From: Chiloscyllium plagiosum
Lineage: Eukaryota
DNA length: 64,000 nt
Assembly (NCBI RefSeq): GCF_004010195.1
Contig: NC_057718.1
Span: forward strand, 5,995,110-6,059,109
Direction of reading: 5' to 3'
A program made the position numbers and the translations under genes. Under the pieces are notes generated by a model, which saw nothing but the letters and a program-made list of their open reading frames with translations, had not been told where the DNA came from and ran no database searches. Below, piece after piece: positions 3,825 to 63,435 of this stretch. The stretch's first letter is position 1, and each line of letters opens with the position of its first letter.

Positions 3825-4078
3825 ATACATCACCGTGAATTCAAGCTTTCAGAAAAAGAAACGGAAATGACATCACCACAGGAAATTACATCACGAACCC
3901 AAGGAAACCTAAACACAAAATAGAAAGCTGGTCTCTAACACCAGTGTTTCACCAGAAACTCACTTATGATGTTGCCTAGTACGGTGACGAAACGTCTGAA
4001 AACAAACTTTCCAGCTCAGTGAGCAAACCTACATCCAGAACTTCAACCTGAGATCTAAATCATCTCAAAACTCACTAA
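3825..4078 (+). mobile_element. Penelope-like 3' pseudo-LTR of a different family, with a mutated hammerhead core
   Basis: CA-CUuAUGA-U-GUUGCC..GGUGAC-GAAA-CG-UC-UG at about 3961-3998. Confidence 0.6.
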
Positions 4079-4084
4079 GAAAAG

Positions 4085-5400
4085 GCCAGGTTTGGGGTAC
4101 TGTGTACAGTTCTGGTCATCCTGCTGTAGGAAGGATATTATTAAATTGGAGATGGTTTAGAAAAAGTTTTTCCCAGATGTTGGGGAGAGCTTGAGTTAGA
4201 AGGATAAGTTAGAACTCTTTTTTACTGGAGCATAGGAAGTTGAGGAGTGACCTTATTGAAGCTTATACAATTATGACGGGTATAGATAAGATGACTAGCA
4301 AAGGTCTTTTCCCCAGGGTGGGGGAGTTCAAAACTAGGGAGCATGCTAGTCACTGCCACCTTCTGGAACCTGACAAAGCCACCTTCCTGCCAAAACATGA
4401 CTTAAAAAAGAAGGGGAGAGAAAGCAAAGAAGAGATTTAAAAAAACAGAAAAGCTAAAAAATAGAAAAGAAAAGAAGATGGAGTGGACAAGCCTCGAGCA
4501 CAGGAGCCCAGATGCTGCCTCCACAATCATATGGCATCATGAAGCAAACAATAGAAACTGCAGAAAGCTGCAGCACAAACAGGCCTGGGGATACTTATGC
4601 ATGAAATACAGACAGCTAGCACCACAGAGGCAGCAGGAGATCAAAAAGGCAAATGCAATGGTTGGCCCTTATTTCAAGGGGAGAAGTCTTAATGCAACTG
4701 TACAAGGTGCTGGGGAGACCACAGCTGGAGTACTCTAGGCAGTTTTGGTCCCCTTATTTAAGGAAAGATTTCATTTCTTTGGAGGCGGTTCAGGGAAGAT
4801 TTGCGAGGATGATCCCTGGTATGGAGGGATTGTCTTATGAGAAAAGGCTAAAGAGGTTGGGACTCCATCCATTGGAGTTGATAAGAATGAAAGGTAATCT
4901 CATTGAAACATACAGGGGCTTGGCAGGGTAAGGGCTGAGAGACAAAAGTAGAAATTACTAGAAAGGCTCAGCAGGTCTGGTGGCATCTATGAAGAGAGAT
5001 CAGAGTTAACCTTTGTCTCTAATTTACAACATCCACAGTTCTTTTGGTATTTTTAAAGGCTGAGAAGATATTTCCCCTCAATGGAGAGTCTAGGACCAGA
5101 GGGTATAACTTAAGCATAAAGGAACACCAATTTAAGACTGAGTTGAGAAGGAATTTCTTCTCTCAGAAGATTGCAAGTCTTTGGAACTCTTTGCTGTAGA
5201 CACTTGTGTGGGCAGAGTCCTATTCGAAATACAAGGGCTGAGTTAGGTAGATTTTTGTTGAACCATAGAATCAAAGATAACAGGGAAATGGCACAAAGGT
5301 GGACATGAGGAATTTCAGATCAGCCATGATCCTACTGCCTGACAGGGCAGGTTCAAGGGGACAAATGGCCTCCTCCTGTTTCTATTCCTTACAGACTTAT
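4085..5400 (+). mobile_element. Cluster of CR1 3' fragments with nested inserts
   Basis: ORF 4653..4931 includes RPQLEYSRQFWSP. CR1 3'UTR present. Confidence 0.8.
4941..5057. mobile_element. Short fold-back-family insert in CR1
   Basis: TSD GGCTGAGA at 4933-4940 and 5058-5065. Confidence 0.65.
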
Positions 5401-6060
5401 TTGAACTTTTAATGTAATATTAAACTATGTCGCAGATTTTGAGAGTGTTTCCACAGAATTCATAAATCAAACTTCAAATTTTCGACAGGGAAATCTGTTC
5501 TCAATTATATTTAGAGCGAGACATAAACAGCAACAGGATAATTTGACCGTCTGAAGCAAATATGAAGAACAGAGCCTTAATCCGATGCCCAGGCATTGTT
5601 TCTTGGTGCTGTAATAACCTTTGTCCTTTCATACAGTTTTCTATTTCAAGCAAAAACTGATAGCACCCCTCCTTTAACATCACAATGTTACAGTTTCCAG
5701 CCGACAGTAGCTACAATTCTTGGTGGTAGCACCAACAAGAAACAGACAAGAAATTAAATCAAGATTCACTTGACATCGTGGTTCAGCATAAATTATCCCA
5801 GGTGGCAATTGTAAAGCAGAAAGTGGGATTCATCTAGGTGGCCTGGGAATATTTCAGCTAATAAGAGAAAGTGAGGACTGCAGATTGTGAAGGGTGGAGG
5901 AGACACAGCGCCACACTTTTCGACAACACATCAGCAAATATCAGTAATAGACATTATTGTTTGTGGAACTTTGCTGTGTACAAACTGGTTGTTGGTTTTT
6001 CCATGGCATTATCGGTTTTATCCTTTGTGATAATCCGAGGTCATGAAAGGTGCTATTATA

Positions 6061-6377
6061 GGGTGGAAGGTGGTTCAGTGGTTAGCACTGCTGCCTCACA
6101 GCACCAGGGACCCAGGTTTGTTTCCAGCCTTGGGTGACTGTGTGGAGTTTGTACATTCTCCCTGAATCTGCATGGGTTTCTTCCCACAGTCCAAAGATGT
6201 GCAGGTTAGGTGGCCATGCTAAATTCCCCATGGTGTTCAGGGATGTGTGGGTTAGGTGCATTAGTCAGGGTAAATAGGGGTAAATAGGGGAGGGATATGG
6301 GTCTGGGTGGGTTAATATTCGGAGGGTTGGTGTGGACTTTTTTGGTCAAAGGGCCTATTTCCACACTGTAGAGATTC
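6061..6377 (+). mobile_element. HE1-type V-SINE
   Basis: tRNA head (TCAGTGGTTAGCACTGCTGCCTCACAGC) and V-domain. Confidence 0.88.
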
Positions 6378-7025
6378 AATAAAAATTTTAAATGCAAGCA
6401 TTTCATTCTTGCTTCATGTGAAATTGTGTATAGAGTTGGCAAACAAATACTTTAGGGAAATAAATGCAAAGATTGAAATGGCAAACTTCTTTGACTTATT
6501 GTTTTGCCACCTGTCCAACTATGAATTCTCATCAGTCTGCCTCAAATATTAATCCACTCACCGGTCATTCTGAATCCCCTCCTTACTGTTGCCACTGACC
6601 TCAGGCAGCAGTGTTCCCACTGCCCAGCTAAAAATTATACTGATATCAAGTGACCAGGAGAAAACAAATGCAACTGAATGTGTTCTTCTTCTCATTGCTA
6701 TGGTGAGGGTCAGTCTACCCAACAACAAAAAAGTTTATTTTGCTGAGAAGCAGAGAAGTGAATGATAAAAGCATCGACAGACAAAAAAATATCAGCTAAG
6801 ACATTCACCAATGGACTAAGAAACTAAACCACATCAAGGAACCAGATACAATTGGCACATGTGGGTCCAAGTAGGTACAGCCTCACTTAATCATGGAAAT
6901 AATAACAATATCCATATCTAAAAAGTGACAATGGGAACTACAGATAGGTAATCTTAAATATCAGTTATGGATAATATCGATATGGTCAGAGGTATTCTGT
7001 TTGTTAGAGAAGGAATAGTAGGCTG

Positions 7026-7838
7026 CAGGTAGTTCCTGAGTTGCAAACCCAGGTTTCCGTTCTTGCGTCGAATTGCAAGTTGATTTGTACACAAGGCAGA
7101 TTTTAGATTTAGCTTTCATTGTCATGTGTACTCAAGTACAGGGTACACGAGTCCAGTGAAAAGTGTACAATGTCACCACACGCAGCACCATCTGAGGTGC
7201 AAAGTACCCTGGTACAAATTCTTAGTTACAGAAGTAGGAAAATAAGGAAATAAGTTAAAAAGTTCAACACTACAGTCTTTTGAGCATAAAGTGGAAAATG
7301 AAGAACTAACATTAAAAGTCAAACAGGACAGTTCTTTCCTAAGCCATAGTTCAGCAAACACTCCAAGCTGGGCTGTCCCCAGGAGGGCTCACTCTCCCCC
7401 ATACTGACCACGTTTTACCACACTGGGCTAAGATCCAGCTGTGCTCACCAACTGCCTTCACAGCTGACTGCCTCTGCTGACCTCGATAGGACACTCTGGG
7501 CTTCAGAGTTGCTTGCAAAGCTTCGGCCCTGACCGCCCCTTCGCCACTAACCATTACTGCCGCCATCTTTTTACGGCTGCCGCCATCCTTCGCTGTTGAC
7601 CACCGCCTCGCCACCATCTGGGCCCACGCTTGTCCATAATCCATTGCCACGTTAGCCACCTCACTGCAAAATCCCACTCTGGTACCACTCCGGACGCAAT
7701 GCAGGACAATATAAAATAGCCAGTCATATAATGGGAATGTTTATACATTGGGTCTTTAAAAATTGAAACCACATATGAGATCGTGTTTGCATATGCGAGC
7801 ATTCGTAAGTCAGAGGTTTGTAAATTAGGGAACCCCTG
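7026..7838. mobile_element. Tigger-like MITE interrupted by a minus-strand non-autonomous retroelement (about 7098-7705)
   Basis: TIRs CAGGTAGTTCCTGAGTTGCAAAC and CAGGGGTTCCCTAATTTACAAAC. Confidence 0.6.
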
Positions 7839-8902
7839 TATACAGCTTAGGGGCACAAGTCTGCACCAAGCGTCAGAGAATGCGATCAGGTAGCTATCCA
7901 TGAGCTACTGCAATTGACGTAGGAATAAAACCCACACCATTGTGATCATTCTGCACCACACTCTGGACAACTCAACTAATTGACTCACTAGAGGGATGAA
8001 GATTCACCTAAGCTGGACAAAGTCAGATCTCCGAATCTACAGCACTCGAGAAGACTTTTGTCCTTGGATTTATTTGGGATGGAGTTAGCATGGAATTGTC
8101 AGTGTGTGGATTCATCTCTGAGATTTAGTGGGAATCTTTAAAAAACACTCAAATTCCATCCCGGTATTTTGGATTTAGACAAGGTTCATTGTTCTGCTAA
8201 ATGAGCAATTGATTCCCAAAGGAAGAAGCCATTGAATAGGATGTTCTCAAGAGCAGTGAAAATCAACAAAAGTCAGAGAAAGTAAAAAGAATGATTGTGA
8301 CTGGAACTATACTGATAAAGAAAGGATTCTATAGAGAGCCGCTCAGAGGAAAGGGAAGTGAAAAAACATCACCTGACTTTGCAGATGTTGCTGAACCTTT
8401 GGGGAGGTGATGGGAGATGATGAAAGGTGATTATACTATAAGAAAGAGAAATGTGAACAATCTCAGGCGACTGACAGAAACATCCCCTGTTCCTTTGTTC
8501 CTGAAAAGAAGTTTTGTAGAACTATTGTTTGAGAACATTCTGGACAACCAGCATTCCTTCATCTTTTTTTACACTCCAGTAGTTCCTCCAACAAGATCCT
8601 TGTCCACAAGTTGAACAGCTTTCCATAGTCTTACTCCACCCTATCAGAGTGATCTTCTTTGCTTACAAGTCCTTGTCTGATCCCTCAGGTTCACTGACAC
8701 CAGATTAGTTATTGGCTCCCATTCACATTGCATTACTATCAAAGAATGATCACACATTTAGATTGCCTTTGGTCACTTCAACAATCACTCACAACCCCTA
8801 TGACACACCTTAGCGAGGGGCACTGCTTGATTGATGTAGCTCCTTCATTAATGTCACCCTTCCATTGCTCCTATGTCTTGACTGGGGCTATCTGATGGCA
8901 GG

Positions 8903-9125
8903 TACCATCCTTTCTGGTATTATGTATGTTTTGTCAACACAAGTTGACTGTAAAGCAATTGATGAATAGGTGAACATTGTTTGTAAAACACACACTTTTG
9001 CATATGTGTATTGGCTATAACACCATTCCATTCCGACACTTTAAGTATATTTTTATTGCACAATTTTTATGTAGCTCAAGGTCACGCAAGGACACAACTA
9101 CCATGTTATAGCAGAAAGGACTGTA
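8903..9125. mobile_element. Older copy of the same MITE, reversed
   Basis: Colinear similarity to 36516-36734, with TA-like ends. Confidence 0.6.
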
Positions 9126-11233: not shown

Positions 11234-11489
11234 TGATTTGGAGATGCTGGTGTTAGACTACAGTGTACAAAGTTAAAAATCACACAACACCAAGGTTATA
11301 GTTCAACAGGTTTATTTGGAAGCACTAGCTTTTGGAGCGCTGCTCCTTCATCAGGTGGTTGTGGAGAATAAGATCATAAGACACAGAATTTACAGCAAAA
11401 GTTTGCAGTGTGATGTAACTGAAATTATATATTGAAAACAGCCTGGATTGTTTGTAAAGTCTCTCATCTTTTAGAATGTTCCCTCGGAG

Positions 11490-12012
11490 ACTACTTCAAC
11501 AGAGCAACAGAGCAACAGAGGATTACTAAGAAGGAAATACGCAGAGGAAAAATTAGGTATGAAGGTAAACTGGCCAAGAATATTAAGGAGGATAGTAAAA
11601 GCTTTTTTAGGTATGTGCAAGGCAAAAAAATGGTTAGGACAAAAATTGGGCCCTTGAAGACAGAAACAGGGGAATATATTACTAGGAACAAAGAAATGGC
11701 AGAGGAATTAAATGGGTACTTCAGATCTGTGTTCACTGGGGAAGACACAAGCAATCTCCCTGAGGTAACAGTGGTTGAAGGACCTGAACTTAAGGGAATT
11801 TATATTTGCCAGGATTTGGTGTTGGAGAGACTGTTAGGTCTGAAGGTTGATAAGTCTCCGGGGCCTGATGGTCTGAATCTCAGGGTACTGAAGGAGGTGG
11901 CTCGAGAAATCGTGGATGCATTTGTGATTATTTTCCAGAGTTCAATAGATTCGGGGTCGGTTCCTGAGGATTGGAGGGTGGCTAATGTTATACCACTTTT
12001 TAAGAAAGGTGA
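11490..12012 (+). mobile_element. CR1 ORF2 internal fragment
   Basis: ORF 11432..12145 includes KSFFRY, KSPGPDG and VPEDWRVANV. Confidence 0.88.
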
Positions 12013-12929
12013 GCGAAATTTTGTGGCTAGAATTCACTCTATAATTCAAGTTATAACTCACTTTACAAACACTTACATTATTTCCTGCACAAATAAGGGA
12101 CCATGTGATAATCTCAATTCATCTTACTCAGCTTTCATTTTATAGAAGCTCTCTCTTCTCATCATTTCTTTTCAGACCTTGAGTCATATCCATCAATAGC
12201 TCTATTCTATCTGAAGTCCCCAGGCATGGTTAGTATCAAGGCACACATCCATAAACCCTCTCCCACTCGGATTACACCAACACAAAATTCACAGAAATCT
12301 ATGATCCCTTTAAGCACTTCACCACCAGAAGGGATATTGTCCAATAGCAATCCTGCTTTTCCTGTCTTCAATGTTCTGTCCTTTCTGACTATATAACTCT
12401 GTATAACACAGAATCTTCTCTATTCTCATGAGACCAGCCTCAGCATTAGGAGTCCTTCAAAACTGACACATCAAAAACTGTTCAATCTGAAGGGAGCATA
12501 ATTTGTTTTCCTTTTTTCCTGAATTTCCACTCTTCTGAACTGCCAAACAGAAAAATGCTGAAACTAACCCTACTGCAATTATCTTTCCATTTGCCATTTG
12601 TTTTTAAATTGTTCATTCCCTAGGCAACCAAAGGTCAGATGGGCATTGCTTCGAACGGAATGATATCTTAATCAGGAAACAATTAAATCATCTTTCAGAA
12701 AACATACACAGTGAAAATAGAGGCTTTTTCCAGCACAGAGGTCAGCGCCGAATAAATAAAAAATGGTTAAATAAATACTAGATTTTCTGAGATACAAATA
12801 CTTTTATCTTTGTACAACTACAATGCCTTATTTTTTTTCTGCTACTCATGCATAGTGCAATTTGTATGTTTTCAGCTGAGCTAGAGGCCAGTTGCTGAGA
12901 TCCCTGCACTAACTACTGAAGTGTTCCTG

Positions 12930-13060: not shown

Positions 13061-13061
13061 C

Positions 13062-13211: not shown

Positions 13212-13388
13212 AACAGTCCAGGAAATTTGACCTTCGACCTTCACGCGACCATTCTTCAAGGCAGATTTTGGGACAGGCAACAACGAAAAGTGGCCGAGCC
13301 GAGGCTGTTAGCCGAGTTCGGTACCCATGAGGATGACCTCAACCGGGACCTTGGGTTCATGTCACACTACAGGTGACCCCATTGCAAT

Positions 13389-13437
13389 ACACGCACGCAC
13401 GCATGCACACACATACGCACACACACACACACACACA
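13389..13437. repeat. (CA/CG)n microsatellite
   Basis: acacgcacgcacgcatgcacacacatacgcacacacacacac. Confidence 0.9.
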
Positions 13438-13571
13438 TAGACATATAAGCTTGTGGGGTGAATTTGTACTTGCAGAATTACATTTTACTTTGCTCAAAAA
13501 CTGCATGAATCCATGTCAGATTCTGTAAATCCATCTTTTAGATTAGAATCAGTCTGACTGTTGTGGCACAG

Positions 13572-13782
13572 GTAACAACAATGACTGCAGATGCTGGAAA
13601 CCAGAGTTTAGATTAGAGTGGTGTTGGAAAAGCACAGCAGTCCAGGCAGCATCCGAGGAGCAGTAAAATCGACGTTTCGGGCAAAAGCCCTTCATCAGGC
13701 TTTTGCCCAAAACGTCGATTTTACTGGTCCTCAGATGCTGCCTGAACTACTGTGCTTTTCCAGCACCACTCTAATCTAAAAC
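13572..13782. mobile_element. Fold-back element with a minus-strand hammerhead core
   Basis: 14-bp TSD CTGTTGTGGCACAG (13558-13571 and 13783-13796). Core CUGAUGA-A-GGGC(uuuu)GCCC-GAAA-CG-UC. Confidence 0.85.
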
Positions 13783-14053
13783 CTGTTGTGGCACAGTCTC
13801 ACACAGGGCACCTCACACCTTCGATACACTATTTGGGCCGACATGATACCTATTGTTAAAGTTCACTTGAGAATATAACTTCTAAAAAAAGGTTTTATGA
13901 TTTACATATGAAAGAACTGAAACTAACATGTTCATTCTAAAAGATGAGAGACTTAACAAACAGTCCAGATCTTTTTCAATATATAATTTCAGTTACATCA
14001 CACTGTAAACCTTTGCTGTAAATTCTGTGTCTTACGATCTTATACTCCACAAC

Positions 14054-14088
14054 CACCTGATGAAGGAGCAGTGCTCTGAAAGCTAGTG
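14054..14088 (+). ncRNA. Minimal type I hammerhead ribozyme motif in a Penelope pseudo-LTR
   Basis: CAC-CUGAUGA-A-GGAGC(agu)GCUCU-GAAA-GC-UA-GUG. Stem I is CAC/GUG and stem III is the palindrome AGCU. Confidence 0.7.
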
Positions 14089-14139
14089 CTTCCAAATAAA
14101 CCTGTTGGACTATAACCAGACGTTGTGTGATATTTTACC

Positions 14140-15095
14140 GTTTACAGATAGATATTGATGGGTTAATCAAATGGGCAAAATTTGGCAAATGGAGTACAGT
14201 ATTGGAAAATACAAAGTTGTACATTTCAGAAGGGACAAAAGACCAGACTATTATTTAACTGGAGCCAAATTGACAAAATCTACAACATGACGGGTCTTGG
14301 GGGAACTTGTACATAAAACACAGAAAGCTAGCACGCAAGGACAGCAAGTAATCAGGAAGGGGAATGGAATGTTGGCCCTTATTTCAAGAGGATTGGAGTA
14401 TAAGAGTAGGGAAGTCTTACTGCAACTATACAAGGGACTGGGGAGACCACATCTGGAGTACTGTGAGCAGTTTTGGTCTCCGTATTTAAAGAAAGTATTC
14501 ATTTTTTGGAGACTGGTCAGAGAAGGTTCACTGGGATGATCCTTGGTATAGAGGATTTGTCTTATGAGCAAAAGCTAAATGGATTGGGACGCCACTCACT
14601 GGAGTTTAGAAGAATGAGAGGTGATCTCATTGGAACTTAAAGGGCTTGACAGGGTCAATGCTGAATATTTCCTCTCATGGGAGAGTCTAGGACCAGAGGC
14701 CACAAGATATAGGGGCACCAATTTAAGGTTGAGATGAGAAGGAATTTCTTCTCTCAGAGGGTTGTGAGTCTTTGGAACTCTTTGCTAGAGAGAGCTGTGG
14801 GGACAAAATTCTTGTATATATTTAAGATGAGATAGATAGGTTTTTGGTGAACTAAGGAATCAAGGGTTACGGTGGAAGGGCAAAAAATTGGAATGCCAGA
14901 TCAGCCATGATCCTATTGCATAGAGACATCCCTAAAGAAGGGTTACACCTGAAACGTTGACCTCTCCACCTCCTGATACTGCCTAGCTTGCTGTGTTCTT
15001 CCAGCCTCCTGCTGGTCTATATTATGATCCTATTTAATGACAGAGTAGGCTCGAGGGACCGAACAGCCTACTCCCGTTCCTGTTTCTTATGGTCT
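14140..15095 (+). mobile_element. CR1 RT C-terminus and 3'UTR, right part of the host
   Basis: DIDGL..W..WQME and RPHLEYCEQFWSP motifs, plus a 3' tail. Confidence 0.85.
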
Positions 15096-15493: not shown

Positions 15494-15632
15494 AGAAAGT
15501 GAGGACTGCAGATACTGGAAATCAAAATTGGGATTTTCCAGATTGAAAGTCTTTTGCCCGAAATGTCAATTCTCCTGCTCCTCGGATGCTGCCTGACCTC
15601 ATGTGCTTTTCCAGCACCACAATCCCAAATCT
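15494..15632. mobile_element. Internally deleted fold-back element
   Basis: TSD GAATG(A/G)AATTCTGG at 15480-15493 and 15633-15646. Confidence 0.7.
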
Positions 15633-15740
15633 GAATGGAATTCTGGAGAGTTGAGATGAATACACCTATGGAAACGCAAATATTTAATGATGGAGAAGGA
15701 ATGTATCCCAGTATAGATGTTAATTTGCACATGAATTTCT

Positions 15741-16360: not shown

Positions 16361-16556
16361 AGAGAAGGTGAGGACTGTAAGGACGAGAGTGTAGTGCTGG
16401 AAAAGCACAGCAAGTCAGGCAGCATCTGAGGAGCAGGAGAATCAATATTTCAGGCATAAGCCCTTCATCAGGAAGGGCGTGTGCCCAAAACATCAATTCC
16501 CCTGCTCCTCGGATGCTGACTGACCTGCTGTGCTTTTCCAGCTCCATACTTTTTTA
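16361..16556. mobile_element. Fold-back element
   Basis: 13-bp TSD CACAAACAAGACA (16348-16360 and 16557-16569) and inverted arms. Confidence 0.8.
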
Positions 16557-21959: not shown

Positions 21960-22180
21960 TAAAAAAACGAAAAAAATTGGGAATGCTGTAAGTCAGAAAA
22001 TCAAAAACAGAAATTGCTGGAAAAGCTCAGCAGGTCTGGCAGCACCTGTGGAGAGAAATCAGAGTTAAAGCTTCAGGTTAAGTTCTGAGGAAGGGTCACT
22101 CAACCTGAAAGGTAAACTCTGATTTCTCTCCACCAGTGCAGCCAGTCCTGATGAGCTTTTCCAGCTATTTCTGTATTTGA
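21960..22180. mobile_element. Fold-back element
   Basis: Inverted arms gctggaaaagctcagcagg..gagagaaatcagagtt and a degenerate CUGAGGA..GAAA core. Confidence 0.75.
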
Positions 22181-38544: not shown

Positions 38545-38840
38545 TAATGCATTGTCTGAGCTGAGATGTCACCTTTTTTTATATAAAACCTTAAGTTATC
38601 TCGAGAATGTGACTTAAAAGAATTTCTGGGATTTACATATTAATGAACTTGCACACCAATCTAAAAGATGAAAGACTTAACAGCAATTTGGTTGCATGAC
38701 ACTGCATTCTTTTGCTATAAATTCTGTGTCTTATGGGCCTGCTCCACAGCTACCTGATGAAGGAGCAGCGCTCTGAAAGCTAGTGCTTCCAAATAAATCT
38801 GTCAGACTATAACCTGCTCTTGTGTGATTTTTAATTTTGA
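38545..38840 (+). mobile_element. Solo Penelope pseudo-LTR
   Basis: Homologous to 13850-14135. Confidence 0.75.
38751..38785 (+). ncRNA. Minimal hammerhead ribozyme motif
   Basis: UAC-CUGAUGA-A-GGAGC(agc)GCUCU-GAAA-GC-UA-GUG. Confidence 0.7.
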
Positions 38841-39078
38841 AAGAATACAGCATCAAAACCCTCATTGTATATAAAAAGCAATTGACTATGCATCTTAAGA
38901 GCTGTAACCTACAGCTGTATGGACTAAGACTGGGGAGGTAATTGAGCTGAATAGCTTTTTCCAAGATCAGGTGTGATGGGCTCAGTTGCTACCTTCTGTA
39001 ACATGCATATTTGTAAATCTATAAGGAGCTTTAAGTCTGGCAAATGTAATTTCAAATTCCCGACGAGGTGCCTCTTAC

Positions 39079-40620: not shown

Positions 40621-40812
40621 GAGAGTAGCGGGAGCTGGGCGGAAGTGAAGTCGGAGTGCAAAGCCGGTCGGGAAGGTAAGTGATTGTTATTTGAGTGGAG
40701 AAGGAACCCGAGACACTACACGTGTAGTGTCTCCCACCCTCCATCCTCCTGTAACCTTAAAAAAAAAGGTAAACTACTTGGTGTTCTTGTTTTGGAGACT
40801 AAGTGTAGAGTT

Positions 40813-41742
40813 ATGGCAGCGCAGGCAGTGGAATGTTCCTCCTGCAGGATGTTTGAGGTAGGGGTGACCACCGATGCTCCTGCTGACTTCATCTACAGGA
40901 AGTGCAGCCAGCTCCAACTCCTCACAGACCGTGTTAGGGAACTGGAGCTGGAGTTGGATGAACTGAGAATTATTCGAGAGGCTGAGAGGGTGATAGATGG
41001 AAGCTACAGGGACATAGTTACGCCAGAGTACAGAGGTAGCTGGGTAACAGTTAGAGGTGGGAAGGGGAGGAAGCAGGTAGTGCAGAGATCCCCTGTGGTC
41101 GTTCCCCTCAACAATAAGTATACCGCTTTGGATACTGTTGGGGGGGACAGCCTAGCAGGGGTAAGCTGCAGTGACCAGGTCTCTGGCACAAGGTCCGGCT
41201 CTGAGGCTCAGAAGGGAAAGGGGGAGAGGAGGAGAGCGCTAGTTATAGGAGACTCTATAGTTAGAGGGACAGACAGGGGGTTCTGTGGACATGGGAGAGA
41301 CTCTCAGTTGGTTTGATGCCTCCCGGGTGATAGGGTCCGAGACGTCTCGGACCATGTCTTCAGAAAACTTAAGGGGGGGGATGTGCAGCCAGAAGTCGTG
41401 GAGCACATTGGCATCAACGACATGGGTAAGAAAAGGGATGGGGAGGTAATTCAGGAGCTCAGGGAGTTAGGCTGGAAGCTAAAAGCTAGGACGGACAGAG
41501 TCGTCATCTCTGGGTTGTTGCCGGTGTCACGTGACAGTGAGGCAAGGAATAGGGAGAGAGTGCAGTTGAGCACGTGGCTGCAAGGATGGTGTAGGAGGGA
41601 GGGCTTCAGGTATTTGGACAATTGGACTGCATTCTGGGGAAGGTGGGACCTGTACAAACAGGACGGGTTGCACCTGAACCAGAAGGGCACCAATATCCTG
41701 GGAGGTAGGTTTGCTAGCACTCTTCGGGGGGATTTAAACTAA
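40813..41742 (+). pseudogene. CR1 ORF1: zinc finger, leucine zipper and SGNH esterase; disrupted
   Basis: MAAQAVECSSC, heptad LTDRVRELELELDEL, GDSIVRG, IGIND and DGLHLN motifs. In-frame TGA at 41314-41316 and a frameshift near the G-run at about 41373. Confidence 0.9.
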
Positions 41743-41825
41743 TTTGGCAGGGGGATGGGATCCGGACTTGTAGTCCAGCAAGTAGGCTAGCTGTTTGTCA
41801 GCATGTCCAAGAATGTAGGGAGGCT

Positions 41826-44792
41826 GTGAAGAAGGTAGCACTGACAGGGAATACTTACGGACACAGAGATGGGTTCAAGTGTGTATACTTCAACGCAAGG
41901 AGTATCAGAAATAAGGTCGGTGAACTTAAGGCGTGGATAGGTACCTGGGACTACGATGTTGTGGCCATCACGGAAACATGGATAGAAGAGGGACAGGAAT
42001 GGTTGTTGGAGGTTCCTGGTTACAGATGTTTCAGTAAGATTAGGGAGGGTGGGAAAAAAGGAGGGGGGGTGGCATTGCTAATTAGAAATGGTATAACGGC
42101 TGCAGAAAGGAAGTTTGAGGGGGATCTGCCTCTGGAGGTAGTATGGGCTGAAGTCAGAAATAGGAAAGGAGCAGTCACCTTGTTGGGTGTTTACTATAGG
42201 CCCCCCAATAGCAGCAGAGATGTGGAGAAACAGATGGGGAAACAGATTTTGGAAAGGTGCAGAAACCACAGGGTAGTAGTCATGGACGATTTCAACTTCC
42301 CAAATATTGATTGGAAGCTCTTTAGATCAAGTAGATTGGATGCGGCGGTGCTTGTGCAGTGTGTCCAGGAAGCTTTTCTAACGCAGTATGTAGATTGTCC
42401 AACCAGAGGGGAGGCCATATTGGATTTGGTACTCGGTAATGAACCGGGACAAGTGGGGGGCTTGTTAGTGGGTGAACATTTTGGTGATGGTGACCACAAT
42501 TCTGTGACTTTCACCTTGGTGATGGAGAGAGATAGGTGCGCACAACAAGGTAGATTTTATAATTGGGGGAAGGGAAATTACGATGCTGTAAGGCAGGATT
42601 TGAGGAGCATACGTTGGGAGCATAGGCTGACAGGGAAGGATGTGGTGGAAATGTGGAACTTCTTCAAAGAGCAGATACGACGTGTCCATGAAATGTATGT
42701 ACCTATCAGGCAGGAAAGAAATGGTCGTGTGAAGGAGCCTTGGTTGACGAGAGAGGTTGAATGTCTGGTAAAGAGGAAGAAGGAGGCTTACATAAGGTTG
42801 AGGAAACAGGATTCAGACAGAGCAGTGGAGGGATACAGGATAGCCAGAAAGGACCTGAAGAAAGGGATTAGGAGAGCTAAGAGAGGGCATGAAAAATCGT
42901 TGGCGGATAGGATCAAGGATAACCCCAAGGCATTTTATGCGTATGTGAGAAACCTGAGAATCACGAGAACGAGGGTAGGTCCGATCAAGGACAGTAGTGG
43001 GAGACTGTGTATTGAGTCGGAAGAGATAGGAGAGGTCTTGAACAAGTACTTCTCTTCAGTATTTACGAACGAGAGGGACCGTATTGTAGAAGAGGAGAGT
43101 GTGAAATGGACTGGTAAGCTAGAAGAGATACCTGTTAGGAAGGAAGATGTGTTGGACATTTTGAACAACTTGAGGATAGACAAGTCCCCCGGGCCTGACG
43201 GGATATATCCTAGGATTATGTGGGAAGCAAGAGAGGAAAGTGCAGTACCGTTGGCAATGATCTTCTCGTCTTCACTGGCAACGGGGGTGGTACCAGGGGA
43301 CTGGAGAGTAGCGAATGTTGTGCCCCAGTTCAAAAAAGGGAATAGGGATAACCCCGGGAATTACAGGCCTGTTAGTCTTACTTCTGTGGTAGGCAAAGTA
43401 ATGGAAAGGGTACTGAGGGATAGGATTTATGAGTATCTGGAAAGACACTGCTTGATTAGGGACAGCCAGCACAGATTTGTGAAGGGTAGGTCTTGCCTTA
43501 CAAGTCTTATTGAATCCTTCGAGGAGGTGACCAAGCATGTGGATGAAGGTAGAGCAGTGGATGTAGTGTACATGGATTTTAGTAAGGCATTTGATAAGGT
43601 TCCCCATGGTAGGCTTATGCGGAAAGTCAGGAGGCACGGGATAGAGGGAAATTTGGCCAATTGGATAGAAAACTGGATAATTGGCCAATTGGATAAAAAC
43701 CAGTCGAAGTCAGAGAGTGGTGGTAGATAGCAAATATTCAGCCTGGAGCCCAGTTACAAGTGGAGTTCCGCAGGGACCAGTNNNNNNNNNNNNNNNNNNN
43801 NNNNNNNNNNNNNNNNNNNNNNNNNNNNNNNNNNNNNNNNNNNNNNNNNNNNNNNNNNNNNNNNNNNNNNNNNNNNNNNNNNNNNNNNNNNNNNNNNNNN
43901 NNNNNNNNNNNNNNNNNNNNNNNNNNNNNNNNNNNNNNNNNNNNNNNNNNNNNNNNNNNNNNNNNNNNNNNNNNNNNNNNNNNNNNNNNNNNNNNNNNNN
44001 NNNNNNNNNNNNNNNNNNNNNNNNNNNNNNNNNNNNNNNNNNNNNNNNNNNNNNNNNNNNNNNNNNNNNNNNNNNNNNNNNNNNNNNNNNNNNNNNNNNN
44101 NNNNNNNNNNNNNNNNNNNNNNNNNNNNNNNNNNNNNNNNNNNNNNNNNNNNNNNNNNNNNNNNNNNNNNNNNNNNNNNNNNNNNNNNNNNNNNNNNNNN
44201 NNNNNNNNNNNNNNNNNNNNNNNNNNNNNNNNNNNNNNNNNNNNNNNNNNNNNNNNNNNNNNNNNNNNNNNNNNNNNNNNNNNNNNNNNNNNNNNNNNNN
44301 NNNNNNNNNNNNNNTGAAGTGGTGTTGCAGCTGTACAGGACTTTGGTTAGGCCACATTTGGAGTATTGTGTGCAGTTCTGGTCGCTTCACTTTAGGAAAG
44401 ATGTGGAAGCTTTGGAGAGGGTGCAGAGAAGATTTACCAGGATGTTGCCTGGAATGGAGAATAGGTCGTACGAGGATAGGTTGAGAGTGTTAGGCCTTTT
44501 CTCATTGGAACAGCGAGGGATGAGGGGTGACTTGATAGAGGTTTATAAGATGATCAGAGGAATAGGTAGAGTAGACAGTCAGAAACTTTTTCCCCGGGCA
44601 CAACCGAGTGTTACAAGGGGACATAAATTTACGGTGAAGGGTGGAAGGTATAGGGGAGATGTCAGGGGTAGGTTCTTTACCCAGAGAGTGGTGGGGGCAT
44701 GGAATGCGCTGCCTGTGGGAGTGGCAGAGTCAGAATCATTGGCGACCTTTAAGCGGCAATTGGATAGGTACATGGATAGGTGCTTAGGCTAG
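41826..44792 (+). pseudogene. CR1 ORF2: APE endonuclease and reverse transcriptase; frameshifted, RT core in assembly gap
   Basis: YFNARS, ITETW, YRPP, DFN, GDHN, KSPGPDG, NYRPVSL, DFSKAFDKVPH, VPQG and RPHLEYC motifs. Confidence 0.93.
43782..44314. other. Assembly gap (533 N)
   Basis: Run of N. Confidence 1.
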
Positions 44793-44867
44793 GCCAAATG
44801 TTCGGCACAACATCGTGGGCCGAAGGGCCTGTTCTGTGCTGTATTGTTCTATGTTCTATGTTCTATG

Positions 44868-45640
44868 ACACAAAACGTATCCTGGGTGGGGGATTTCAAT
44901 GTCACCATCAAGAGTGGCTCGGCAGCAATACGACTGATGGAGCTGGACGGGTCCTAAAGGACTGAGCTGCTAAACTGGGTCTGCAGCAGGTGGTGAGGGA
45001 ACCACCAAGAGGGAAAACCATACCTAACCTCATCCTTACCAATTTGCCGGCTGCAGATGCATCTGTCCATGACAGCATCGGTAAGAGTGACCACTGCACA
45101 GTCCTTGTGGAGACAAAGTCCCACCTTCACATTGATAATACTCTTCATCTTGATGTTGGCACTATCACTGTGCTAAATAGGACAGATTTCAAACAAATCA
45201 AGCAATTCAAGACTGGGTCTCCATGAGGCGCTGTGGGTCATCAACAGCAGCAAAATTGTACTCCAGCACAGTCTGTAATCTCTTGGACTGGCATATCCCC
45301 TACTCAACCATTACCATCAAGCCAGGAGATCAAGCCTGGTTCAATGGAGAGTGCAAGAGAGCATGCCAGGAGCAGCACCAGGCATATCTGAAGATGAGGT
45401 GTCAACCTGGTGAAGCCACCAAGTAGGACCACATGCACACCAAACAACGTAAGCAGCAAGTGATAGACAGCATCAAGCAATCTCACAACTAACAAATCAG
45501 ATCTAATCTCTGCAGTCCTGGCATATCCAATTCTGGACGGTGGACCTTCACAAATATTCCCATCCTCAATAATGGAAGAGCTCAACACATCAGTGCAAAA
45601 GATAAGGCTGAAGCTTTCACAGCAATCTTCAGCCAGAGCC
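44868..45640 (+). mobile_element. Continuation of the same older LINE (APE C-terminus and linker)
   Basis: WVGDFNV, QVVREPPRGK..NLILTN, IGKSDH and DQAWFN motifs. Confidence 0.8.
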
Positions 45641-45767
45641 AGCTAGATAATAGCCAATATGAAATACTTCAGGTAAACTAAATTAAATGATTTAGACTAA
45701 CAGGTATGCTCTTAAATTTTAGCCAATGATGCTCTGAACCAGCTAAGAGTCATAATTTTATTTCATA

Positions 45768-46076
45768 AAATCCCTACAGTGTTCCATTCAGCCCAACAAG
45801 CCCACACCAACTTTCTGATGAGTATCCCAGCCAGACTCACCCCCTTACCCTATCACCTCACATTTCCCATGGCTAATCCATCTAACCTACACATCCCTGG
45901 ACCCTACAGGCAATTTAGCATGGTCAATCCACCTAAACTGCACATCTTTGGACTGTGGGAAAAAACCCACTCAGAAATTGGGAGAACGTGCAAACTCCAT
46001 ACAGACAGTTGCCCGAGGCTGGAATTGAACCGAGGTCCCTTGTGGTGTGAGGTAGCAGTGCTAACCATTGAGCCAT
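45768..46076 (-). mobile_element. HE1-type V-SINE
   Basis: Same head and V-domain as the other copies. Confidence 0.85.
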
Positions 46077-46079
46077 CAT

Positions 46080-46402
46080 ATTTGTTCAGGTGTTGTGGGT
46101 ATCGGTGGCTAGACCAGCATTCATTGCCCTTCTCTAATTGCCTAGAGGGCAGTTAAGAGTCTACCACATTCCTGTGGGCCTGGAGTCACATGTAGGCTAG
46201 ACCAGGTAAGGATGGAAGATTTTCATTCTTAAAGAACATTCGCAAACCAGGTGGGTTTTACCTGACAATCTGCAACAATTTCACCATTACATTCTTATTT
46301 CCAGATTTTTTATTGGGTATTCCATATTTTATCTAGTCCCAGGACATTGTCTGAGTCTCTCGATTAATAGTCTAGCAATAACACCCCTGGGTGATCACTC
46401 CA
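46080..46402 (-). mobile_element. tRNA-headed bipartite SINE
   Basis: Head and body match 39877-40150. Tail matches the LINE 3' end at 52980-53070. Confidence 0.75.
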
Positions 46403-48422: not shown

Positions 48423-48499
48423 CTGGAAACATTATGAAAAAAGGAAACACATATCACAAATTCAATTATCAGAAAGGAATAGGAAAAGAAAAGTTAGAT

Positions 48500-51952: not shown

Positions 51953-52190
51953 AAAACAAAAGAACTGCAGATGCTGAAAATCTGAAACAAAACCAGAAAA
52001 TGCTACAGAAACTCAGCAGGTCTGGCAGCATTTGTGGGGAGAAAGCAGAGTAATCACCTTGCGTTCAGTGACCTTCTTCAGAACTAGCAGTTCTGAGGGT
52101 AACTGAGACCAACATCCAAATGTGAACTTTTTTTCTTATAGTTGCTGCAGTTCCTCCAGCACCTTCTGTTTCTTCCCTACCTGTATAGCT
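51953..52190. mobile_element. Degenerate fold-back element
   Basis: Left arm of the same family with a partial right arm. Confidence 0.6.
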
Positions 52191-53545: not shown

Positions 53546-53581
53546 GTATGCAGAATGCCTGTGTTTGATTTATACATTTGT

Positions 53582-55892: not shown

Positions 55893-56158
55893 CTAAAAAT
55901 AAAACCAAAAGATGTGGATGCTGAAGATCTGAAATGAAAGCAGAAACCGCTGGAGAAGCTCAGCAGGTCCAGCAGCATCTGTGGAGTGGAAGCAGAGTTA
56001 ATATTTAAGTCCAGTGACTTTTCCTCAGAACTTATGGCAGCTAGGAAAGTTATGAGTTCTGAAAAAGGGGTCACTGGGCTCGACACGTTGATTCTGCTTT
56101 CTCTTCATAGATCCTGCCAGACCTGCTGATTTTCTCCAGCAGTTTCTGCTTTTGTTTG
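55893..56158. mobile_element. Fold-back element
   Basis: Inverted arms of the same family as 21960-22180. Confidence 0.75.
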
Positions 56159-58175: not shown

Positions 58176-58542
58176 TATAATGCCAATGCCACAGTGGTAG
58201 AGGTGGTTCACAGTGAAGGTGGAACTTCACTCTAAAATCTGTGTATTGATCACAGAGACCTAAACTGCTCCGGTCATTAGATTCATCTGTAGCTGGGAGG
58301 TTTTCCGAAGATGACAGTAAGCAGGCTTTCCCCTTGTATTGGCTCTCCTCAAAAAGCCACAGAAACTGTCATTCTATTATTTAATGCACTGCAATCATAC
58401 AATGAGTGTCTACCTGTGCTTGTATGTTGTTACACAGAGAGATGGCACCAATACCAATTCTGACTCCTGTCTCTCCACTGTAACAATGACAGTGGTCCTT
58501 GGAATGTTAGCAGGTGACAGATTCCTCACACTCTTTTGGTTC

Positions 58543-58846
58543 ATTAGATTAGATTACTTTACAGTGTGGAAATAGGCCCTTCGGCCCAACAAGTCCACAC
58601 CGCCCCGCCGAAGCGCAACCCACCCATACCCCTACATTTACCCCTTACCTAACACTACGGGCAATTTAGCTTGGCCAATTCACCTGACCTGCACATCTTT
58701 GTGACTGTGGGAGGAAACCGGAGCACCGGGAGGAAACCCGCGCAGATACAGGGAGAACGTGCAAACTCCACACAGTCAGTGGGTGGGAATTGAACCCGGG
58801 TCTCTGGCGCTGTGAGGCAGCAGTGCTAACCACTGTGCCACCCTGC
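58543..58846 (-). mobile_element. Young HE1-type V-SINE
   Basis: CpG-rich, intact head, (AATCT)n tail. Confidence 0.9.
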
Positions 58847-60274
58847 CATTCATGTTCCTTTTAAACCTAATTACAAGTTCAGTGATATCCTCTTGTCTCT
58901 CCTGACTCCCTGTGATGGGGGTGTTCCAACAATGGTGTCATGGATTGAATCTGAGCCATACTTGTTGCATTATCTGTTTAACTTGTGACATAATGCAGTG
59001 GACTGGAGCCAGTATAAAGACTGGTGTAATATAATTTCAGCAATGGTGTGCACGGTGTACACATAAAATAGTAAGCTTCATCTCAAGAGGATTGGATGGT
59101 TATCCTGACAGAGAATGAGATGAGCATTACAAGGTGAAGTAAAGGCAGAGATAACTGAATGCTCTCAATAACGCAATGGGTTCATAACGCCCCTCACAGT
59201 GGACAGGAAGCTGGCTGCGCGAGCAGCTCAATTGTCCTTTCTGTTGAAGTCAGTGGAAAATAAAACCACGCATATTGTGGGATGGGTGTCCAATCCAATA
59301 ATGCTCATCCTACAATCCTGCCTGAGACAAATTCTGATTATTTCTGAGCTTTGTGTTTGCACATACAAATGTAGGCAACTGTCCTCTTGAACCTGTAGCG
59401 AGGCTATCTCTACATTGGAGATACGAGCATCTTCTTTCCAACTTGTATTGGCCTAAATAATCTGATGGCCAGAGAGTCATTGGAGCAGTGCAGACTGTAT
59501 TTCCACAATTGGGTCATGTGGATCCCTCACTGGGGAACTGCCCAAGAAACTTGATTTTCTTGTGGGCAACACCCTCAAGACTGGAATCTTCCAGAAGATC
59601 CCACTGAAGATGAAGAATTAGGAGTATTCCAACTCACTAAAACTTAGTCATTACGCACCTACAGTTAGAGGACTAAAGTCTTCATCTGGACAGAAGGCCA
59701 GAAGACACAGGAGCAAAAGTAGGCCATTCAGCCCATCAATTCTGCTCCACCACTCAACAAAATCATTGCTGATCTGATAATCCTCGATTCCACTTTTGTG
59801 CCTTTTCCCAATCGTCCTAGATTGCCTCACTGATTAAAAGTCTATGTCCCTCAACCTTGAATATACTTAAAGAGCCATGCTCAATAGAGCTCTATGGTAA
59901 AGAATTCTGCAGACTGGCTACTCTGCAAGATAACGGCTGGATAACTCTAAAACTGAGCTCCAAACTCATCAGTGACTTACCCAAATATACCCACTGAACA
60001 GACCCTCTGTCCTGCCTGAAACTGATTCCACTTCATACGCCTAATTACCCTCGGACTGTCACCACAACCTTCGCCCCTGACTCCGTTCCACTCCATCACC
60101 AGCTTGACCAACCCCTCTCACCCCTGAACTGACATCTCTCCCACTTGATGTCGGAACCGACAGCCATTTCCACTGTCAGACCCCAACAGCCCCCCAATCC
60201 CAGTCTGACATCCTCCCGAAACAACAAACTTAACTTGACAACCGCACCCCACCTGCACTTCCTGTGACAGTTTT

Positions 60275-60740
60275 GTTTTTCTTTATTCATTTGTAGGATG
60301 TGGGCTTTGCTGACTGAGTCAGCATATTTTTGCCCATCTCTAGTTGCCCCTTGAGAAGGTGGGGGTGAGCTGCCTTCTTGAATTGCTGCAGTCCATGTGC
60401 TGTGGATTGACCCATAATATCTTTAGGGAGGGAGACCCAGGATTTTGGCCCAGTGACAGTGAAGGAACAGCAACATATTTCCAACTCAGGGTGGTGAATG
60501 GCTTGGAGGGGAGCTTACAGGGGTTGATGGTCCCATGTATCTGCTGCCCTTGTCCTCTTAGATGAAGGTGTTTGTGGGTTTGGAAGATACTGTCTGAGGA
60601 TCTTTGGTGAATTTCTGCAGTGCATCTGTAGATGATACACACTGCTGCTCCTGAGGGTTGGTGTTGGAGGGAATGGATGCTTATGGATGTGGTGCCAATC
60701 AAGCAGCTGCTTTGTCCTGGATGGAGTCAAGCTTCTTGAG
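60275..60740 (-). mobile_element. 3' end of the same LINE family
   Basis: Homologous to 52975-53450. Confidence 0.85.
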
Positions 60741-61323
60741 CAAATAAAGTGGCTTTAGTCTATCATCATAACTCCATCCTATTTTCTCGATGGACTGAGT
60801 CAAATAGATGCTGTGAGCTTGAAATGTTCTACTGCAGAGAATGGAAGAGGCAGAGACAAATGTATCTTTCAGAACAAAAGTGTATAAAATTTAATCAGAA
60901 GGTGATATAGGTCCCTGGGACAATGGAACTGGTTTTCAACTGCTCTAATATTAGTTGGTGCTGTTATTATGGACTGAATAGATTCATACTATGCTGTAAA
61001 CTTCTGTTGCTTCATAGATTAAATCAATGAGTGAGAGCAAGAGGTCATTAAGACATGGTGACTCTCAGGTTAAACTCACCAATTGACTCTCTTTAATAAG
61101 AAAGCTATCAGGGACTATGGAGACTTTACCTTTCCTTAATCAGATTTAAGGCAAAGGAAAACCTTTTGTTATTCCATGATTTCTGTCCTTGATGCTGAGT
61201 TACAGTGAAGAACTTGTGCAGTGAAACTTTAAGCTAAAACTGTTTGTATGATGATTATTCATAATTCATAACATTGGTTAAAGACATTGAACAGCAGTAT
61301 TTCTTTCTGAAGGTATGACTTAC

Positions 61324-61377
61324 AGGTGGTCCTCGTGGTCCTGAAGGTCCAATTGGTCCTTGTTTACCTGGAAAACC
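61324..61377 (-). CDS. COL12A1: Collagen XII alpha1 exon, COL2 domain, 54 bp (GFPGKQGPIGPSGPRGPP)
   Basis: Flanked by ttacag| and |gtaagt on the minus strand. Perfect Gly-X-Y, phase 0/0, classic 54-bp collagen exon. Confidence 0.93.
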
Positions 61378-61559
61378 CTGTAATATGAAAGAAATACAGT
61401 CTTGAAAAAGATTGGAGTTAATGTATCTTTTGGCATTAAGCATTTATGCCCCCCCCCATAAAAAACTGTCTGGCAGCACAGTCTTGACATCAATCAGCTG
61501 GAATTGGCAAGTATCATGAATCAGCTACTTGAGGATCTTGTTAAGTGGGACCTCTTATT

Positions 61560-61895
61560 AATTCATTTATTGTGGGACATCAATGAGGGTGTTGCTGAAT
61601 GGGCAAGCATGTCAGATGTCAGTTCAGAGTCAGCCACATTGTTCTGAGTCTGGAGTCACATATAGGCCAGACCAGATAAGGATGGCCATTTCCTTCCTAA
61701 AGGGCATTAGTGAGCCAGGAGGGTGTTTTCCACAACAATTGACAATGATCATCATTAGACTCTTAGTTTCAAATTTTTAACTGGATTAAAATTTCACCAT
61801 CTTTCATGGTGGGAGTTGAACTCAGGTCCCCAGAACATTAACTAGATTTCTGCATTAACAATCCAACAATAATACCCAAGGCCAATGCCTTCCCA
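61560..61895 (-). mobile_element. tRNA-headed bipartite SINE, second copy
   Basis: Homologous to 46080-46402. Other fragments lie at 690-750 and 1045-1200. Confidence 0.7.
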
Positions 61896-62959
61896 GACTC
61901 TTCCAACTGCTCCAAATATGGCACATTACATCACAGAGATGGGTTAAACCAAACAAAGAGGAATCCCAAATGGGGAACCTTCCCTGCACTGGTCTCTTTC
62001 AGTGCCAAATGTTCAAATGCCTGACAACCAGTTAGCTAAAGGTCAGAAAGTGCCACCCACTGGGTATTCCAGGCCTGTCAAAGCTGAAGCAGCAACAAAT
62101 CATCCTTGACAAAATCAAACAGCAGTGGTCCTGTATGACTGTCAGGGTCACTTTTTCTGCCTCCTTCCCTCATTCAACAAGCAACCTGAGTAAACCCACC
62201 ATGGCATTCATGTTTATATACCATCGCTCAGTAATAGAAGGCGTGTCCCTTTGACTCTAGCAGCATCAAGAGCAGAAGTGGCTTCTGCCAGGAGATTTTG
62301 GAAAAAAATTCATGGGATAAATTTCTAGTCAGCCCACAGCAAGAATGAAGTGGATCTGAATAAGTTTTGCAAAATTGATGTTGGAGACTCGGTGGCCTGA
62401 TTTACACACTGCCAGATTTTCATCCTTAGTAGAAATTAGCATGGGGTAGAAAAGAGGTCGCTGATTCACCATCAATCTTTTGCAGCTCAGCTTAAAAATA
62501 ATCTGGCATTTATTCAATGACCACTGGGCATCTCAAAGCTCCTTGGAGTCACTAAAGTATTTTTGAAGTGCAATTTAGGAAACAGAACAGTAGCTTTGTG
62601 CAGGAAATAACATCATGGTAAAGATAATTTGTTTGATCAGAGGAATGCATCTAAGTTTTTTTCTTTTGCAATGCAACAGAATAACTCTGAATTATTCATT
62701 CAGATCCTCAGCTTTATACAGTCTCTCACTCTGTTGTCTAGTTTAGCTGACACTAATCATTCAGTCAGTTAGTGATTAACATGAAGGTAACACTAGTGAA
62801 GAGCTTTTATTTCTTATTGTTAAGCTTAACTCATTTGGTCGTTCCTCCACCTTAAGACAAGTCAGTTCAATCTCCCTCCATGGCTTAATCCTACCATCTA
62901 GCACTGCACTTTGGTAAATGTTCTTGTCCAGATGACTTGTTGAAGTCATCACTTACTTG

Positions 62960-63435
62960 TTAAAAACCAAAAAAACTGCAGATTCTGTAAATCACAAAGA
63001 CAAACAGAAATTGCTGAAAAACCTCAGCAGGTCCAGCAGCATCTGTGGAGAGAAATCAAAGTTAACGTTTCAGGTCCAGTGACCCTTCCTTAGAACATGG
63101 TTCTGAGGAACGGTCACTGGACACGAAAAGTTAATTTTGCTTTCTCTCCATAGAGCTGAAAATGTGTTGCTGGAAAAGCACAGCAGGTCAGGCAGCATCC
63201 AAGGAACAGGAGAATCGACGTTTCGGGCATAAGCCCTTCTTCAGGAATGAAGCCTGAAGAAGGGCTTATGCCCGAAACGTCGATTCTCCTGTTCCCTGGA
63301 TGCTGCCTGACCTGCTGCGCTTTTCCAGCAACACATTTTCAGCTCTGATCTCCAGCATCTGCAGCCCTCATTTTCTCCTTTCTCTCCATAGATGCTACCA
63401 GACCTGCTGAGCTTTTCCAACGATTTCTGTTTTTA
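62960..63435. mobile_element. Older fold-back element hosting the 63155-63377 insert
   Basis: Inverted arms ctcagcagg..agcatctgtggagagaaa. Degenerate CUxAGGA-GGGUC-ACUG-GACCU-GAAACGUU cores. Confidence 0.75.
63155..63377. mobile_element. Young fold-back (Penelope-derived) element with a hammerhead core on each strand
   Basis: About 94-bp near-perfect arms (63152-63245 and 63253-63346), a 3' tail, and a 15-bp TSD CTTTCTCTCCATAGA. Confidence 0.85.

Follow-up and report, generated by a model that had tools for sequence, protein, structure and literature searches.

In a 64,000-nucleotide (nt) stretch of the genome of Chiloscyllium plagiosum (assembly GCF_004010195.1, contig NC_057718.1, positions 5,995,110 to 6,059,109; hereafter the window, by which the whole of this stretch is meant), a short motif resembling the core of a hammerhead ribozyme recurs in repeats whose paired stems differ in sequence. 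A preliminary description of this DNA held that at least four unrelated repeat families share one minimal hammerhead grammar. The locus raises the question of what kind of element carries the motif, and whether its several forms came by a common grammar through descent or independently. Our answer, to which we attach a probability of about 90%, is that the cores are minimal hammerhead ribozymes (min-HHRs) of type I that occupy the beginning of the 3' terminal region, or pseudo-long terminal repeat (pLTR), of Penelope-like elements (PLEs). These elements encode a reverse transcriptase (RT) with a C-terminal GIY-YIG endonuclease.

A strict descriptor of the motif (CTGANGA, zero or one unpaired nt, a helix II no shorter than 3 bp, then GAAA, a single paired dinucleotide, U and H) finds six intact cores in the window. 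Dinucleotide-preserving shuffles of the same sequence hold 0.023 cores on average and one at most, and none of 300 reaches six, so that the count in the window is far above chance, which supports the conclusion that these are hammerhead-type motifs. All of the sites that the preliminary description had cited are present, and decay was confirmed at 3963, 14932, 63093(-), 11354(-), 22085 and 56028/56060; in all, about a dozen decayed copies accompany the intact cores. A covariance model seeded with 11 cores of the B and C types, six of them taken from the GIY-YIG loci introduced below, recovers 14 window sites at E<0.3, and two intact A-type cores score E 0.5-0.9 with this B/C-built model. The window holds approximately 25 PLE 3' arms of at least five lineages, here called A, B1, B2, C and D; they are mostly extreme 5' truncations, many are joined head-to-head with an inverted copy, and a 35-nt tail is optional (Table 1).

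The link to PLEs was sought from the protein side. A search of the organism's own genome with the Pfam GIY-YIG model yielded 14,403 candidates at first look, 47 scored matches and 30 loci, selected irrespective of the hammerhead motif. At 22 of the 30 an arm of type B1, C or D lies 48-673 nt 3' of the GIY-YIG match, on the strand of the open reading frame (ORF), and among loci with at least 900 nt of downstream sequence the proportion is 22/28. The best-matching arm is of type D at two loci (L070, L072), type C at three (L063, L069, L075) and type B1 at the remainder; B2 gives weaker secondary matches only. GIY-YIG scores above the Pfam cut-off in all eight in-frame ORFs tested. The 403-amino-acid (aa) ORF of L081 aligns with the C-terminal 290 aa of P0001 (E 2e-24), a protein of 792 aa in which GIY-YIG clears the Pfam cut-off and RVT_1 narrowly misses it, with 29.0 bits against 29.6, and for which PF00078 is present in the precomputed listing; judged by its domains, P0001 has the PLE architecture of RT plus GIY-YIG. 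Family A is joined to this group through the body of the element, which reaches 26-33% identity to the GIY-YIG ORFs in tblastn comparisons (E 1e-6 to 1e-13). Copies of A match L056, which has an inverted arm at 58-245, back to variable points (about 245 in L058, about 330-350 in L038 and L061). Pfam returned nothing relevant for the upstream pieces of L092 and L093. Upstream of a family A copy, an exon-like ORF at L092:1135-1458 matches CFAP298 (PF11069, 57 bits), and the surroundings are therefore those of a host gene.

The motif belongs to a known class of element, and its grammar matches the published min-HHR feature by feature. Min-HHRs that lack helix III have been described from PLE terminal repeats (Cervera and de la Pena, 2014, PMC4209133): positions 15.2-16.2 are palindromic, helix I is short, the ribozymes are presumed to work as dimers and have low activity in vitro, and each genome holds numerous consensus families of them, which show compensatory changes and opposite-strand pairs. 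A review (PMC6765202, in part; sources so marked are cited from a portion of their text) paints the same picture and refers to Lunse et al. on dimeric cleavage; the small dimeric PLE-associated hammerheads of Lunse, Weinberg and Breaker (RNA Biol 2016/17) are alike to the extent that their title and this review reveal. The cores of the window share with the published form CUGANGA and GAAA, H17, the unpaired nt after A9, a helix II with G10.1-C11.1, the lack of a helix III loop, the palindromic 15.2-16.2, the multiplicity of families, the opposite-strand pairs and the position in the terminal repeat of an element with RT and GIY-YIG. Helix I is short in both; it has 4-5 bp in the published min-HHRs, and the lineages here range over 3-5 bp, with three of four positions paired and a U.U in the main B1 form.

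The constancy of this grammar can be read from a scan of 343,604 bases, a biased set in that many loci were retrieved by B1 or A queries, in which core matches were collected without a helix II requirement. The scan gave 111 raw matches, and in 93 of these a helix II that spans 4 bp or more adjoins GAAA. A single unpaired nt precedes helix II in 91 of the 93 (A in 89, C in one, T in one), and in the D lineage this nt is U, both in L070 and at window position 3970. Positions 15.2-16.2 are CG in 51/93 and GC in 21/93, the remainder being mostly one step of CpG decay away (TG, CA, TA), and position H17 holds C 64 times, A 24 times and U five times. Helix II is GGAGC/GCUCC with a 3-nt loop in A, GGGC/GCCC with a 4-nt loop in B1, GGGUC/GACCC with a 4-nt loop in B2, GGGU/ACCC with a 3-nt loop in C, and GUUACC/GGUAAC-like with a 6-nt loop in D. 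Helix I is a perfect 5 bp in the B1 subfamily B1c (GAUUC/GAAUC, L076:602-647), 4 bp in B2 (AGUU/AACU) and C (AGUC/GACU), 3 bp in A (YAC/GUG) and D (UCA/UGA), and reads G-C, A-U, U.U, U-A in main B1. The claims that stem II changes while staying paired and that stem III is always a short palindrome (ACGU or AGCU) thus hold, the former between lineages and for helix I as well. In B1c (L076:560-647; helix II loop CUGU) the minimum free energy (MFE) structure of the monomer comprises helix I and helix II around an open core, and on such modelling B1c would be the cleanest hammerhead candidate seen. For two copies, the dimer MFEs computed with RNAcofold do not single out the ACGU:ACGU helix.

The same changes had been taken as covariation within the window and as a sign of a selected RNA structure, and this stands in part. 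Across lineages the helices differ and yet pair. Inside a family, decay at CpG accounts for most of the differences (GCUCC-GAAA to GCUCU-GAAA; ACGU to AUGU, ACAU or AUAU; CGAAA to CAAAA), and GCUCY, GACCY, GAAAUGU/AAAACAU and the AUAU at 16444 all represent CpG>TpG/CpA decay from GCUCC-GAAA and ACGU, not covariation. Alignment with MAFFT across all lineages misplaced A and D, and for this reason the covariance model and the pair counts were restricted to the B/C types. Among the 31 model matches in the GIY-YIG loci, where those of the six seeds occur by construction, pairing holds in 95.9% of cells for helix II, in 82.3% for the stem III palindrome and in 56.9% for helix I; the pair 18-30, which tests G10.1-C11.1, is GC in 21, GU in four, AU in two and other in two. 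The covariation score is 0.171, against 0.140 for shuffled controls (4/500 reach the observed value) and 0.035-0.082 for slid ones. In dispersed A copies the motif is intact in 8/30, and over these 30 the hammerhead columns show no clear excess of conservation over the remainder (mean identity 0.93 against 0.88 in flanks that overrun the end of the element). Selection would act on the master elements, and it would be for this reason that helices stay paired across lineages; dispersed copies would decay neutrally, mostly at CpG.

Since the motif has no helix III, activity would need two copies that pair through the palindrome. A single copy should be unable to fold the active site, whereas two could form a 4-bp helix III from ACGU or AGCU, and the resulting dimeric ribozyme would cut after GUC, GUU or CUA. 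Its likely role would be to process multimeric or read-through PLE transcripts. We infer such dimeric self-cleavage from the motif together with the cited work.

Several observations weigh against the min-HHR reading. No Rfam hammerhead model (Hammerhead_1, Hammerhead_3, Hammerhead_II, HH9, HH10) matches the window or 66-71 nt pieces, either at the gathering threshold or at E<=10, and over the whole genome RF00163 reaches 23.9 bits at best against a cut-off of 34; Hammerhead_1 (RF00163) has the type-I topology and catalytic core in common with the cores described here, which differ in being a minimal form without the helix III that the model presumably expects. Pfam gives no match to the ORF pieces of family A, whose assignment to the PLEs consequently depends on tblastn and architecture. 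The alignment behind the pair counts leans towards structure, being fitted to a model with 6/11 seeds from the same loci, and the covariation is modest because of this fitting and because most matches come from one superfamily. The dominant B1 lineage has a weak helix I. As regards cleavage, the activity of metazoan min-HHRs in vitro is low (PMC4209133), hammerhead mutants left insertion in vitro unaffected, RNA-seq of Anolis showed no ends at the cut site (both Frangieh et al., 2024, PMC11167929, in part), and in 719 raw reads of a polyA single-cell run (X22, of which about 2% was covered; the library is ill-suited) there is no pile-up of read ends anywhere. In the X22 reads B1 lies inside longer transcripts, and 97% run on into unlike sequence; X1 and X5, which are contigs of uncertain kind, show presence only.

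The weak helix I, the low activity in vitro and the fact that X22, with its unsuitable library, has no reads that end where cleavage is predicted would also fit a conserved PLE RNA element that does not cleave itself in vivo, be it a protein-binding or folding element or a hitch-hiking relic. This alternative draws on the Anolis work, in which insertion in vitro was unaffected by the mutants and no reads ended at the cut site (PMC11167929, in part), and on the fact that Naiad PLEs, which lack hammerheads, proliferate well, with the suggestion by the authors that hammerheads parasitise PLEs (Craig et al., 2021, PMC8557442, in part). It has to contend with the nature of what is conserved: the core letters, G10.1-C11.1, H17 and the palindrome, which are precisely what catalysis and dimerisation require, and which persist in lineages whose arms have diverged beyond alignment. 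For the PAc hammerhead, cleavage with C3G/G8C rescue has been reported (PMC11167929, in part). We consider a non-catalytic motif unlikely, if of appreciable weight, and retain the reading of the cores as min-HHRs, which would cleave as dimers.

The anatomy of the insertions bears on how the B1 arms were dispersed. An adjacent inverted partner is found at 22/30 B1 loci, with an inner junction that varies between query positions 14 and 72, and the remaining eight are single. Target-site duplications (TSDs) of 10-16 bp flank five of seven single copies inspected, and the single copies have two alternative 3' ends, ...TTTTCAGC or the same followed by a tail of about 35 nt. B1 thus bears the signature of PLE insertion: 5' truncation, an inverted adjacent copy, a tail at one end and a TSD. 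PLE insertions are described as highly 5'-truncated, accompanied by a neighbouring copy that is inverted and itself 5'-truncated, and with a tail of 30-40 bp on one side only (PMC8557442, in part), and the two alternative 3' ends of PLEs have been explained by two internal start sites of reverse transcription (PMC11167929, in part); in every feature covered by these portions of the two papers B1 is alike, with no difference seen, and it looks like an extreme, very short case of PLE insertion. At the 5' junctions of three single B1 copies (L006, L015 and L024), GAAGGGCT-like direct micro-duplications of core letters, or short inverted pieces, sit between the upstream TSD and the start of the element, which suggests template switching at the 5' end. 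Sub-threshold matches to Rfam microRNA (miRNA) precursors (MIR2118, MIR533, MIR5048, mir-680 and mir-722) occur at 63173-63326, 16396-16542, 22001-22180 and 13665-13720; these are long PLE head-to-head foldbacks, not miRNA genes.

A different origin for the short B1 elements would be as non-LTR retrozymes, that is, tandem arrays of hammerhead-bearing units which are cleaved into monomers, closed into circles and then serve as template for a PLE RT. Retrozymes of this kind (PMC7229834; 10.64898/2026.07.22.740005; both in part) resemble B1 in being non-autonomous, hammerhead-bearing and related to PLE pLTRs. B1 is short (an arm of about 95 nt and a tail), non-coding, very abundant and young, and its homology to PLE pLTRs is as described for vertebrate retrozymes (10.64898/2026.07.22.740005, in part). 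The organisation of the two is unlike, however: the available portions of these sources describe head-to-tail tandems, circular RNAs and type-I hammerheads with a short helix III, whereas B1 is dispersed, commonly takes the head-to-head inverted form and has no helix III. No head-to-tail B1 tandem was found in the window or at the 30 B1 loci, extra same-strand copies 740-1000 nt away look like separate insertions, and each insertion has a TSD of its own. A retrozyme origin is in our view distinctly improbable, and the B1 arms are better explained as truncated PLE insertions that carry a pLTR min-HHR.

Where the preliminary description did not hold up is in calling the families unrelated. B1 (GGGC/GCCC), B2 (GGGUC/GACCC) and C (GGGU/ACCC) cross-match by blastn within the window and have a 3' tail in common, which follows the pattern GATGCTGCCTGACCTGCTG.GCTTTTCCAGC, arms of types B1, C and D are found 3' of GIY-YIG ORFs, and the ORF of the A element is homologous to those. 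Homologous GIY-YIG ORFs and a shared tail point to lineages of one retroelement class, whose grammar would be inherited and not convergent; on this sequence evidence the five stem-II types are PLE lineages, not independent families. That several unrelated families should each carry the hammerhead grammar, by convergence or repeated capture, could be argued from the behaviour of A (GGAGC/GCUCC, AGCU) and D (GUUGCC/GGUGAC), which give self-matches only in the same blastn comparison and share nothing with B1, B2 and C, and from the differing helix II sequences and loop lengths. It becomes very improbable when set against the identical position of the motif in each type, the occurrence of every type as the 3' arm of an element with a homologous GIY-YIG ORF, and the common tail of B1, B2 and C. 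Genomic B1 copies are dispersed and 99-100% identical, and those of A are 85-92% identical.

The preliminary description had extrapolated from the window to a very large genome-wide load, and the genome (3.56 Gb, 101,977 contigs, 41% G+C) bears this out. In pattern counts that lack a helix II check, the exact pattern of an intact B1-type core occurs 87,506 times against none for the reversed control, and B1 copies contribute to these GGGC/GCCC cores. CTGANGA-N9-18-GAAACGTH occurs 141,327 times against 1,145 reversed, and the AGCU form 51,544 times against 214. The core grammar therefore totals approximately 193,000 matches against 1,359 for the reversed controls, or about one per 18 kb. A chance match to a loose motif, amplified by lying in abundant repeats, would account for the slight enrichment of the bare heptamer CTGANGA in the window (60 against 45.5 +/- 6.6, with 3/100 shuffles at 60 or more) and for counts inflated by descent within families, yet its probability is negligible in the face of reversed-pattern controls that are more than 100-fold lower and of five lineages that retain the cores, the bulge, G10.1-C11.1, a differing but paired helix II and the palindrome.

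Published min-HHR counts are about 4,000 in coelacanth and about 9,000 in Xenopus, obtained with a different descriptor (PMC4209133); the load here is an order of magnitude higher, a comparison in which the descriptors differ and relatives may be covered by the supplements of that paper (in part). It also exceeds 14,255, the highest number of 'active retrozymes' given in a preprint whose measure is a different one (10.64898/2026.07.22.740005, in part). The kind of element is already known, and what is notable here is the unusually large load together with a very young population of B1 foldbacks. Runs under four coded organism labels (A-D) contain 28-63% of sampled words of 62980-63440, and near-identical B1/B2 sequences are therefore present in several related species.

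A bolder proposal, which we regard as a long shot, is that B1 is a very young, still active, non-autonomous foldback derived from a PLE pLTR, about 225 bp long, with two inverted min-HHR arms and a tail, that it contributes to what may be the heaviest hammerhead load on record for a genome, and that it may switch between a hairpin RNA and a trans-dimerising ribozyme. In a B1 transcript the ribozyme arm would be locked in a near-perfect hairpin of 70-90 bp, and in this state the RNA could be a small-RNA precursor.

A reading of the raw sequence alone recovered a real catalytic-RNA grammar, and the grammar is placed here at the termini of PLEs. The practical gain is in annotation: the miRNA-like sub-threshold Rfam matches of this region are PLE foldbacks, and the whole min-HHR class is missed by the Rfam hammerhead models. 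The large and young B1 population also offers good material for studying the role of PLE hammerheads in vivo.

Table 1. PLE-derived features of the window and their hammerhead cores (positions counted from the first letter of the window).
Feature	Position	Strand	Remarks
Young B1 insertion	63155-63378		Inverted left arm 63155-63245 (-), right arm 63249-63343, 35-nt tail 63344-63378 on one side only; nested within B2 element
Intact min-HHR core	63254-63281	+	CUGAAGA-A-GGGC-UUAU-GCCC-GAAA-CG-UC; predicted cleavage after C63281; covariance model 61.5 bits, yet itself a model seed
Intact min-HHR core, inverted B1 arm	63217-63244	-	Found by descriptor; covariance model 64.8 bits
TSD around young B1 insertion	63141-63154 and 63379-63392		TTTCTCTCCATAGA
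B2 head-to-head element split by B1 insertion	62990-63432		Decayed cores 63064-63093(-), CUAAGGA, and 63103-63132(+)
Older B1-type head-to-head insertion	13572-13784		Tail at left; intact core 13671-13698(-); partner arm cut within its core
TSD flanking older B1-type insertion	13560-13571 and 13785-13796		12 bp, GTTGTGGCACAG
B1-type head-to-head pair	16395-16542		Core 16444-16471(-), one of the six found by the descriptor; CUGAUGA and GAAA intact, ACGU decayed to AUAU; partner arm decayed
Family A PLE copy, 5'-truncated	13212-14154	+	Interrupted by B1 insertion 13572-13784
Core of this A copy	14057-14085	+	Intact; GGAGC/GCUCU, AGCU; predicted cleavage after A
Family A 3' arm	38690-38860	+	Intact core 38754-38782
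Family A 3' arm	11268-11478	-	Core 11326-11354, GAAA>AAAA, CpG decay
C-type arm	14920-15010	+	Decayed core 14932-14958, CUAAAGA (G5>A), GGGU/ACCU
D-type arm	3940-4040	+	Decayed core 3963-3996, CUUAUGA (G5>U)-U-GUUGCC/GGUGAC-GAAACGUC
B2 head-to-head pair	22005-22174		Core-like site 22085-22114(+), helix II broken, stem III non-palindromic
B2 head-to-head pair	55938-56158		Both cores decayed (near 56028/56060)
B2 arm	51979-52084	-	Decayed core
B1-type fragments	15494-15634		Decayed core near 15538-15577(+)

Two further features of the window were noted. Beside the inverted family A arm, 11423-12145(+) is an open frame of 240 aa from stop to stop, without a Pfam match and without similarity to the PLE ORFs tested. 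A CR1/L2-like long interspersed nuclear element (LINE) was weighed for a link with the arms and discarded, its ORFs (AP endonuclease, RT and esterase) being unrelated to them; it occupies 40684-46156, with a GDSL-type esterase at 41317-41742 and AP endonuclease plus RT at 41718-43730, and is interrupted by 533 N at 43782-44314.

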